NCBI RefSeq assembly: GCF_056712565.1
Contig: NZ_CM160072.1
Length of the DNA: 64,000 nucleotides
Strand: one strand, 5' to 3'
In this document: positions 15,579 through 16,118 of the stretch, piece by piece
How the letters are laid out: each line of letters begins with the position of its first letter
Position numbering within the stretch: position 1 is the first letter of the stretch
The notes under the pieces: generated by a model
Databases searched by the model: none
Seen by the model: only the letters and a program-made list of their open reading frames with translations
What the model was told of the DNA's origin: nothing
Translations under genes and position numbers: made by a program

Positions 15579-15688
15579 TGCTTTGCAATTTTTAACAGGC
15601 CTGGCCATGTGGTTGGGCCTTTTTATGCGCGCCATGCCCACCGCATACAAAAAAAGCCCGTACTTTCGTACGAGCTCTTCTTTAAAGA

Positions 15689-15776
15689 TGGCGGTGAGGC
15701 GGGGATTCGAACCCCGGATACGTTGCCGTATACACACTTTCCAGGCGTGCTCCTTCAGCCACTCGGACACCTCACC
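15689..15776 (-). tRNA. serW: tRNA-Ser (serW-like, anticodon GGA)
   Basis: reverse complement reads GGTGAGGTGTCCGAGTGGCTGAAGGAGCACGCCTGGAAAGTGTGTATACGGCAACGTATCCGGGGTTCGAATCCCCGCCTCACCGCCA with long variable arm and 3' CCA. Confidence 0.93.
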
Positions 15777-16118
15777 AAATTGTTTTGCTGCCAGACCTCA
15801 TAGGTGGCAACGGGGCGCTACTATAGGGAGTTGGAGTGAAACGGTCAAGAAGAATTTATATAGATTGATTTGTTTGGTTACGCAATGAACACGCTGTTCG
15901 CGGGACGGAGATTATGACCGTATGTGTTCTGGTCAATTGTTTATCAAAAGCTATGCAGAAAATATGAGATTGAAGAAATACCAAACCGACCCTTTTTCTA
16001 GGTTGTAATGTAACTCATTGATTTTCTTATTGCTATTTTGAAGTCTGGAAAAAGGGTTTGAATCTGCGATTTTGTAAGTTTTAACAGTAAATCAATCGGA
16101 TAGTCTGCTATTATTCCA

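Follow-up and report, generated by a model that had tools for sequence, protein, structure and literature searches.

The serW tRNA gene inside a type I-F CRISPR-Cas locus of Escherichia coli

A tRNA-Ser gene, serW, lies between the last cas gene and the second array of a type I-F CRISPR-Cas locus in the 64-kb stretch of Escherichia coli DNA analyzed here (64,000 nucleotides, referred to as the window). The first-pass annotation had proposed that the cas cassette was gained or lost by recombination between the two arrays or next to serW, and taken as a whole, that interpretation is partly supported by the results described below. The gene and its surroundings were characterized in the window, the junctions were located against the K-12 interval, and the arrangement was compared across complete E. 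coli genomes and other genera.

The serW unit and the type I-F locus around it

ARAGORN detected a single tRNA in the window, a minus-strand tRNA-Ser (15689..15776) with the anticodon GGA. The tRNA-specific models give a cloverleaf with a long variable arm and the GGA anticodon. The Rfam tRNA model RF00005 matches 15692..15776 (minus) with 52.2 bits (E = 2.4e-10; gathering score, 29). The chromosome of E. coli HS13-1 (NZ_CP026491.1), which was the source of the PGAP annotation, matches the window with 100% identity. PGAP places a tRNA-Ser at the same site in HS13-1, and the K-12 orthologue is named serW. The chromosomal site between clpA and infA, the minus orientation relative to clpA, the promoter, and the terminator are those of K-12 serW, and the sole difference between the two tRNAs is one compensatory pair. 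ARAGORN, Rfam, and PGAP confirm that serW is inside the CRISPR-Cas locus between cas6f and the second array, as the first-pass annotation had it. The distances it gave are also correct: 110 bp separate serW from the end of the cas6f reading frame at 15578, and 342 bp (previously about 340 bp) separate it from the first repeat of array 2, which starts at 16119. The tRNA was absent from a whole-window Rfam scan run with default filters at the gathering threshold and was recovered when a short stretch was scanned. The miss is a filter artefact rather than an absence, and it is a caution for the use of Rfam alone.

The PGAP gene order is clpA, array 1, cas1f, cas3f, csy1, csy2, csy3, cas6f, serW, array 2, and infA. 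The complete type I-F (E. coli CRISPR-III) gene set is present (cas1f, cas2-3f, csy1, csy2, csy3, and cas6f), and 13 Rfam CRISPR-DR4 matches to the 28-nt I-F repeat are distributed over two arrays on either side of the cas genes (Table 1). Both csy2 and cas6f contain nonsense codons, and the Csy complex and crRNA processing are probably defective in HS13-1 as a consequence. The two lesions suggest that the I-F system is inactive in this strain. One other genome among the matches listed carries a cas6f block that is 100% identical. A search for self-targeting spacers within the window, with up to seven mismatches allowed, returned none. Spacer 1 of array 2, the leader-proximal one (16147-16179), is 33 nt rather than the usual 32 nt, and position 21 of the first repeat of this array is T instead of C. 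The window also contains a match to the enterobacterial sRNA STnc130 at 31182-31316 (minus; 142.5 bits in Rfam) that is unrelated to the serW locus.

Table 1 Features of the clpA-infA interval. Positions are those of the window.
Feature	Position	Strand	Basis
Leader 1 (CRISPR4.1 leader), clpA stop to array 1	6519..6730	plus	Also in I-F-negative K-12, 96% alignment
Array 1 (CRISPR4.1): six 28-nt repeats, five spacers, degenerate terminal repeat	6731..7058	plus	Rfam CRISPR-DR4, PGAP, repeat families
cas1f	7231-8214	plus	PGAP
cas3f	8211-11444	plus	PGAP
Mini-array in the 329-bp cas3f-csy1 gap, antisense to cas3f	11448..11527	minus	Sequence reading, repeat search
Mini-array, repeat-like unit	11448-11475	minus
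Mini-array, 25-nt spacer-like TAGAGGTATCTCCGGATACGGACTT	11476-11500	minus
Mini-array, degenerate repeat	11501-11527	minus
Predicted mini-array target: CC PAM (11630-11631) and 13-nt partial protospacer	11617..11631	minus	Spacer match
csy1	11774-13081	plus	PGAP
csy2, pseudogene, internal stop 13291..13293	13078-14001	plus	PGAP, ORF list
csy3	14012-15013	plus	PGAP
cas6f, pseudogene, in-frame TAG 15390..15392	15024-15578	plus	PGAP, ORF list
cas operon intrinsic terminator, 10-bp stem then TTTTTAT	15597..15626	plus	Terminator scan; fold energy -16.2 kcal/mol
Hypervariable junction between the two terminators; I-F-specific DNA ends at 15648	15627..15648		Variant comparison, K-12 alignment
serW intrinsic terminator, hairpin and U7	15649..15682	minus	Fold energy -20.1 kcal/mol, z = -4.57
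serW tRNA-Ser(GGA); T-stem pair C61:G77 (49:65; window 15716, 15700)	15689..15776	minus	ARAGORN, Rfam, PGAP, allele comparison
serW sigma-70 promoter TTGACC-17-TATAGT, then GC-rich discriminator	15848..15820	minus	Promoter scan, 10/12 consensus matches
serW upstream region, backbone DNA	15849..15895	minus	Homologous to serW upstream DNA in other genera
Leader 2 (CRISPR4.2 leader), AT-rich, I-F-specific, start ~15896	15896..16118	plus	GC, presence in 240/5426 genomes
Array 2 (CRISPR4.2): seven repeats, six spacers, degenerate terminal repeat	16119..16507	plus	Rfam CRISPR-DR4, PGAP
Array 2 trailer; I-F-specific DNA ends at 16555	16508..16555		K-12 homology resumes at 16556

The serW promoter is the only promoter-like site in 15400-16700. 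Alignment of eight loci from at least three genera (Escherichia, Salmonella-like, and Citrobacter) shows that its core is invariant, and the upstream homology extends to ~15895. The promoter therefore belongs to the conserved island and not to the AT-rich leader, and the earlier placement of the promoter within 15890..16118 is not supported. The window shares the stretch GTTCATTGCGTAACCAAAC in the upstream region with locus L009 and C. amalonaticus, and K-12 has diverged here yet can be aligned; 15849..15895 is a possible UP or activator region of serW. Conservation of the serW terminator extends to K-12 and the Salmonella-like locus L011; the remaining outgroup loci (L007 and L009) have a different hairpin sequence. 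The cas operon runs toward serW and has its own terminator, so the cas and serW units converge, with ~22 bp between their terminators. On the other side of serW, the GC content is 31-39% over ~15850-16100 compared to ~50% in the flanks. The proposal that the AT-rich segment is the array leader was borne out for ~15896 to 16118, which occurs in as many of the 5426 complete genomes as cas6f does (240).

The gap between cas3f and csy1 holds a mini-array whose predicted target is 143-157 bp upstream of the csy1 ATG. Guide and target agree at positions 1-5, 7-11, and 13 of the spacer and disagree at 6 and 12. The mini-array is conserved in five Escherichia I-F loci; position 5 covaries, with G replaced by T on both the guide and the target side in CRE10, and positions 6 and 12 vary freely. 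In C. amalonaticus, Pseudocitrobacter, and Intestinirhabdus, the cas3f-csy1 gap measures just 25-40 bp. Autoregulatory mini-arrays of the I-F1 class (cr-like RNA) have been described and validated in P. aeruginosa (Shmakov et al. 2023). The element at 11448-11527 has the sequence features of this class, namely two repeat-like units, a location in the cas3-cas8f gap, a CC-flanked seed target, and the mismatches at positions 6 and 12. It fits the I-F1 autoregulatory class, and repression is predicted.

Junctions with K-12 and distribution of the two haplotypes

The K-12 clpA-infA interval (locus L002) was aligned to the window by BLAST. Three blocks of homology were found. The clpA end, leader 1, and the first repeat (L002 3901-4282) match window 6378-6759 at 96%; the serW unit, a 209-bp block (L002 4345-4553), matches 15649-15857 at 95.7%; and the infA terminator plus infA (L002 4662-5001) match 16556-16895 at 99.7%. 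Relative to K-12, the I-F-positive interval therefore has two distinct blocks, one on each side of serW. Block A (6760-15648) is I-F-specific and comprises the cas genes and their terminator together with the part of array 1 beyond its first repeat. Block B (~15858/15896 to 16555) is also I-F-specific and consists of leader 2, array 2, and the trailer; K-12 has an unrelated 108-bp filler instead. The serW island between them is conserved in K-12 over 15649..15857, with weaker homology to ~15895, and it contains the terminator, the tRNA, and the promoter. The cas block thus ends at 6759/6760, inside array 1 after the first repeat, and at 15648/15649, which is 40 bp from the serW 3' end and directly after the U-run of its terminator.

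The orphan array of K-12 has two repeats and is found on the clpA side of serW only, where the degenerate repeat at its end adjoins the serW terminator. Its spacer (L002 4282-4313) matches cas1f at 7328-7359 (minus) with two mismatches and a CC PAM. The possibility that the 108-bp filler arose by decay of leader 2, array 2, or the trailer was considered and rejected: BLAST with a word size of 7 and E up to 1 detected no similarity to any of the three, and the MAFFT alignment was weak and unconvincing beyond ~-95 from the promoter. A 15-nt inverted match between 15882-15896 and 6845-6859 was considered as a repeat fragment and set aside as chance because 15882-15896 is conserved serW-upstream backbone in other genera. 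Spacer 1 of array 2 and the K-12 anti-cas1 spacer have the 10-mer CCGCCCACCA in common.

The distribution of these segments was determined in 5426 complete E. coli genomes, 5425 of which have any match to the region. The cas6f gene with its terminator is present in 240 genomes and leader 2 in 240, and the K-12-type filler between serW and infA is present in 5185. The serW island, covered to at least 80%, was found in at least 5421 of the 5426. The sum of 240 and 5185 equals the 5425 genomes with any match, and these counts argue for complete or nearly complete linkage of blocks A and B. No half-states, with cas and leader 2 separated, are evident by counts in this sample.

The sequence of serW itself appears to follow the same division. 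The difference from K-12 is a compensatory G:C to C:G exchange of the first T-stem pair (49:65), formed by positions 61 and 77. All five Escherichia I-F-positive loci have C61:G77 (HS13-1, CRE10, E. coli SCPM, E. whittamii, and Escherichia sp. E1V33). The pair was found in none of seven I-F-negative loci, and it is not in the I-F-positive C. amalonaticus locus either. The exact tRNA allele of the window was recovered in 249 of 5452 records compared to 240 I-F-positive genomes, a difference that may reflect a small number of exceptions or incomplete matches. Almost all of the remaining tRNA matches are 97.7% identical, which corresponds to two mismatches and is the K-12 allele. The serW island is at least 99% identical to the window in 238 records; after these, identity drops to 97.1% at best, with most matches at 95-96%. 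Two I-F variants with cas6f genes that are only ~91% identical are yet 100% identical from 15649 to ~15970, and their differences near serW are mainly in the ~20 bp between the terminators (15627-15648).

Origin of the arrangement

A Csy3-based scan returned 80 I-F loci, and 60 of these were checked for tRNAs. A tRNA-Ser(GGA) after cas6f was found only in four Escherichia loci and in C. amalonaticus. The C. amalonaticus locus (L055) has the order clpA, array 1, cas, serW, isochorismatase, pirin, LysR, array 2, and infA. Salmonella-like loci without I-F have clpA, serW, isochorismatase, pirin, LysR, and infA. In E. whittamii (L015) and Escherichia sp. E1V33 (L014), a four-gene chaperone-usher fimbrial operon and three RtT-like repeats are located between cas6f and serW, and array 2 follows. 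E. coli B7A carries an IS100 between serW and array 2, on the promoter side of serW. The I-F-negative E. coli SC516 has an RtT repeat beside serW (an RtT sRNA in PGAP) and no CRISPR array annotated there. Pseudocitrobacter and Enterobacter quasihormaechei have contiguous I-F loci next to infA without a tRNA, and the Pseudocitrobacter locus also has clpA on its other side. In some Enterobacteriaceae, clpA and infA are 120 bp apart without serW. Judged by these gene orders, the flanks of serW, the 3' flank above all, are a zone of structural turnover. The cross-genus arrangements therefore argue that serW is backbone and that the split layout of cas genes, backbone, and array 2 is old.

Several details of these loci were recorded. 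The three backbone genes and serW occupy 12128-14698 of L055, where the cas operon is ~3.3 kb from array 2 and its leader, and 11668-11726 of the same locus is a partial copy of the serW terminator and tRNA 3' end. The fimbrial operon of L014 is at 5631-10280, and its three tandem RtT-like repeats (10403-10904) score 41-42 bits compared to the Rfam gathering score of 45. The similarity of leader 2 to leaders of other genera is limited to the array-proximal 30-50 bp. A comparison of leader 2 with the contiguous cas6f-array spacers of Pseudocitrobacter, Enterobacter, Pluralibacter, and C. freundii was tried as a means to locate a serW-segment insertion point and was given up, as just these 30-50 bp align.

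The reading that we favor, with a probability of roughly 0.7, is that serW is a resident autonomous unit on a backbone island of ~210-250 bp (15649 to ~15895) amid I-F DNA, that the two I-F blocks and the private serW allele form one haplotype exchanged through the clpA and infA flanks, and that neither tRNA-targeted integration nor array recombination fits. The block 3' of serW (array 1 and the cas genes) and the block 5' of it (leader 2 and array 2) would be co-inherited with the private allele. Leader 2 begins past the serW upstream region, and its transcription runs away from that region. The I-F-positive state (~4% of genomes) and the I-F-negative state (orphan anti-cas1 array, serW, and 108-bp filler) would interconvert by homologous recombination, as the near-identical clpA and infA flanks suggest. 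That one cassette boundary adjoins serW would reflect the structural turnover of the tRNA 3' flank.

The contiguous I-F loci without a tRNA at clpA-infA in Pseudocitrobacter and Enterobacter count against a resident serW and would fit the opposite polarity, in which the tRNA is the newcomer. A backbone segment with serW, with or without LysR-pirin-isochorismatase, would have split a contiguous array 1-cas-leader 2-array 2 locus between cas6f and leader 2. Canonical I-F loci do have a leader and array directly after cas6f, with tRNA-Ser(GGA) there in 5 of 60; the Pseudocitrobacter order is clpA-array 1-cas-array 2-infA; and some Enterobacteriaceae have the 120-bp clpA-infA interval without serW. 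We consider this history unlikely. In I-F-less Salmonella-like genomes, serW adjoins clpA and has the same neighbors as in C. amalonaticus, and the backbone order is therefore independent of I-F. In addition, mobility genes and target duplications flanking the serW segment were not found.

Integrase-mediated, site-specific insertion of the cas cassette at the serW 3' end, as a genomic island, was suggested by the boundary 40 bp from the tRNA 3' end, right after the terminator. The fimbrial operon at the same 3' flank in E. whittamii and Escherichia sp. E1V33 is consistent with such insertions, as is the IS100 of E. coli B7A, though it is at the promoter side of serW. We did not detect an integrase or recombinase gene between clpA and infA; only cas genes are annotated there, and there is no other long ORF. 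The repeat search of 6400-16700, which covered all four junctions, found CRISPR repeats as the only flanking direct repeats of at least 14 nt, plus short chance pairs, and no copy of the tRNA 3' end that could serve as attL or attR. I-F DNA is on both sides of serW, and the same I-F system is at clpA-infA in the tRNA-less Pseudocitrobacter and Enterobacter. The probability of targeted integration is very small, and the idea is already largely refuted. Of the earlier proposal that the cas block was acquired or lost next to serW, what stands is the position of the boundary at 15648/15649; the integrase and the tRNA 3'-end duplication are missing.

Looping out of the cas genes by recombination between array 1 and array 2, to give I-F-negative strains or reversion, is highly improbable: the arrays are direct repeats of one 28-nt unit in the same orientation, and the orphan-array name 'CRISPR4.1-2' hints at a fusion, but the deletion would take serW, which is at the site in at least 5421 of 5426 genomes, the K-12 orphan array is on the clpA side with leader 1 and has unrelated filler in the place of array 2, I-F-negative genomes have a different serW allele, and no genome among the 5426 combines clpA, leader 1, a hybrid array, and infA with the loss of serW. 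The earlier suggestion of cas loss or gain between the arrays is not borne out, because serW is kept and two separate indels flank it in the I-F-negative haplotype.

I-F-negative genomes keep the ancestral G:C pair and all I-F-positive Escherichia loci examined have C:G; therefore, either the haplotypes split before the substitution, or the I-F-positive haplotype moved between species. We tentatively suggest, at less than even odds, that the I-F-positive and I-F-negative intervals are ancient alternative haplotypes that predate or cross Escherichia species boundaries, with the T-stem swap as the marker; the I-F-positive Escherichia loci examined all have it (three E. coli loci with at least two divergent cas-F variants among them, E. 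whittamii, and Escherichia sp. E1V33), and essentially no I-F-negative genome does. I-F-negative E. coli would then not be a recent deletion from the extant I-F-positive lineage, and the split layout of cas genes, backbone, and array 2 would be older than the Escherichia-Citrobacter divergence.

Comparison with known systems

The significance of these results is slight beyond bookkeeping; two tempting inferences, tRNA-targeted integration and array-to-array deletion, are corrected. C61:G77 is a potential one-gene marker for the I-F-positive haplotype, a comparison made by counts (249 and 238 records versus 240 genomes). Together with the 209-bp island allele, the serW allele could aid the typing of E. 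coli lineages and the tracing of I-F immunity loss or exchange among them.

The E. coli CRISPR-III I-F locus was reportedly described by Diez-Villasenor in 2010. The CRISPR-III region is located at clpA-infA with the arrays CRISPR4.1 and CRISPR4.2, and I-F-negative strains have the orphan CRISPR4.1-2 (Almendros 2014, PMC3903273); serW is not mentioned there. A survey from 2025 reports serW in all strains and locates it after the cas cluster, ahead of the second region of repeats (PMC12736100), and the finding is therefore already known, with the details presented here being incremental. The window has the CRISPR-III site, gene order (cas1, cas3, csy1-4), 28-nt repeat, two arrays each with a leader, and serW position. 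Nothing essential is different, and HS13-1 has the nonsense codons in csy2 and cas6f. What is added to the published CRISPR-III is confined to detail, namely the junction coordinates, the linkage to a serW allele, and the comparison across genera.

Orphan CRISPR4 arrays in I-F-negative E. coli are described as remnants with anti-cas spacers (Almendros et al. 2016, as summarized in PMC5972030). The K-12 haplotype is an instance, with two repeats and one spacer against cas1f, whereas the window has the full I-F haplotype; the orphan array is on the clpA side of serW only.

The serW locus resembles tRNA-associated islands in that variable DNA abuts the 3' side of the tRNA and relatives carry other cargo there. 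It differs from them in having I-F DNA on both sides and a boundary after the terminator, without an integrase or att repeats. RtT repeats (Rfam RF00391) are known from tyrT, and in relatives one to three RtT-like units directly follow the 3' end of serW. No RtT unit is present in the window, where the cas terminator is found instead, 28 bp from the serW terminator.
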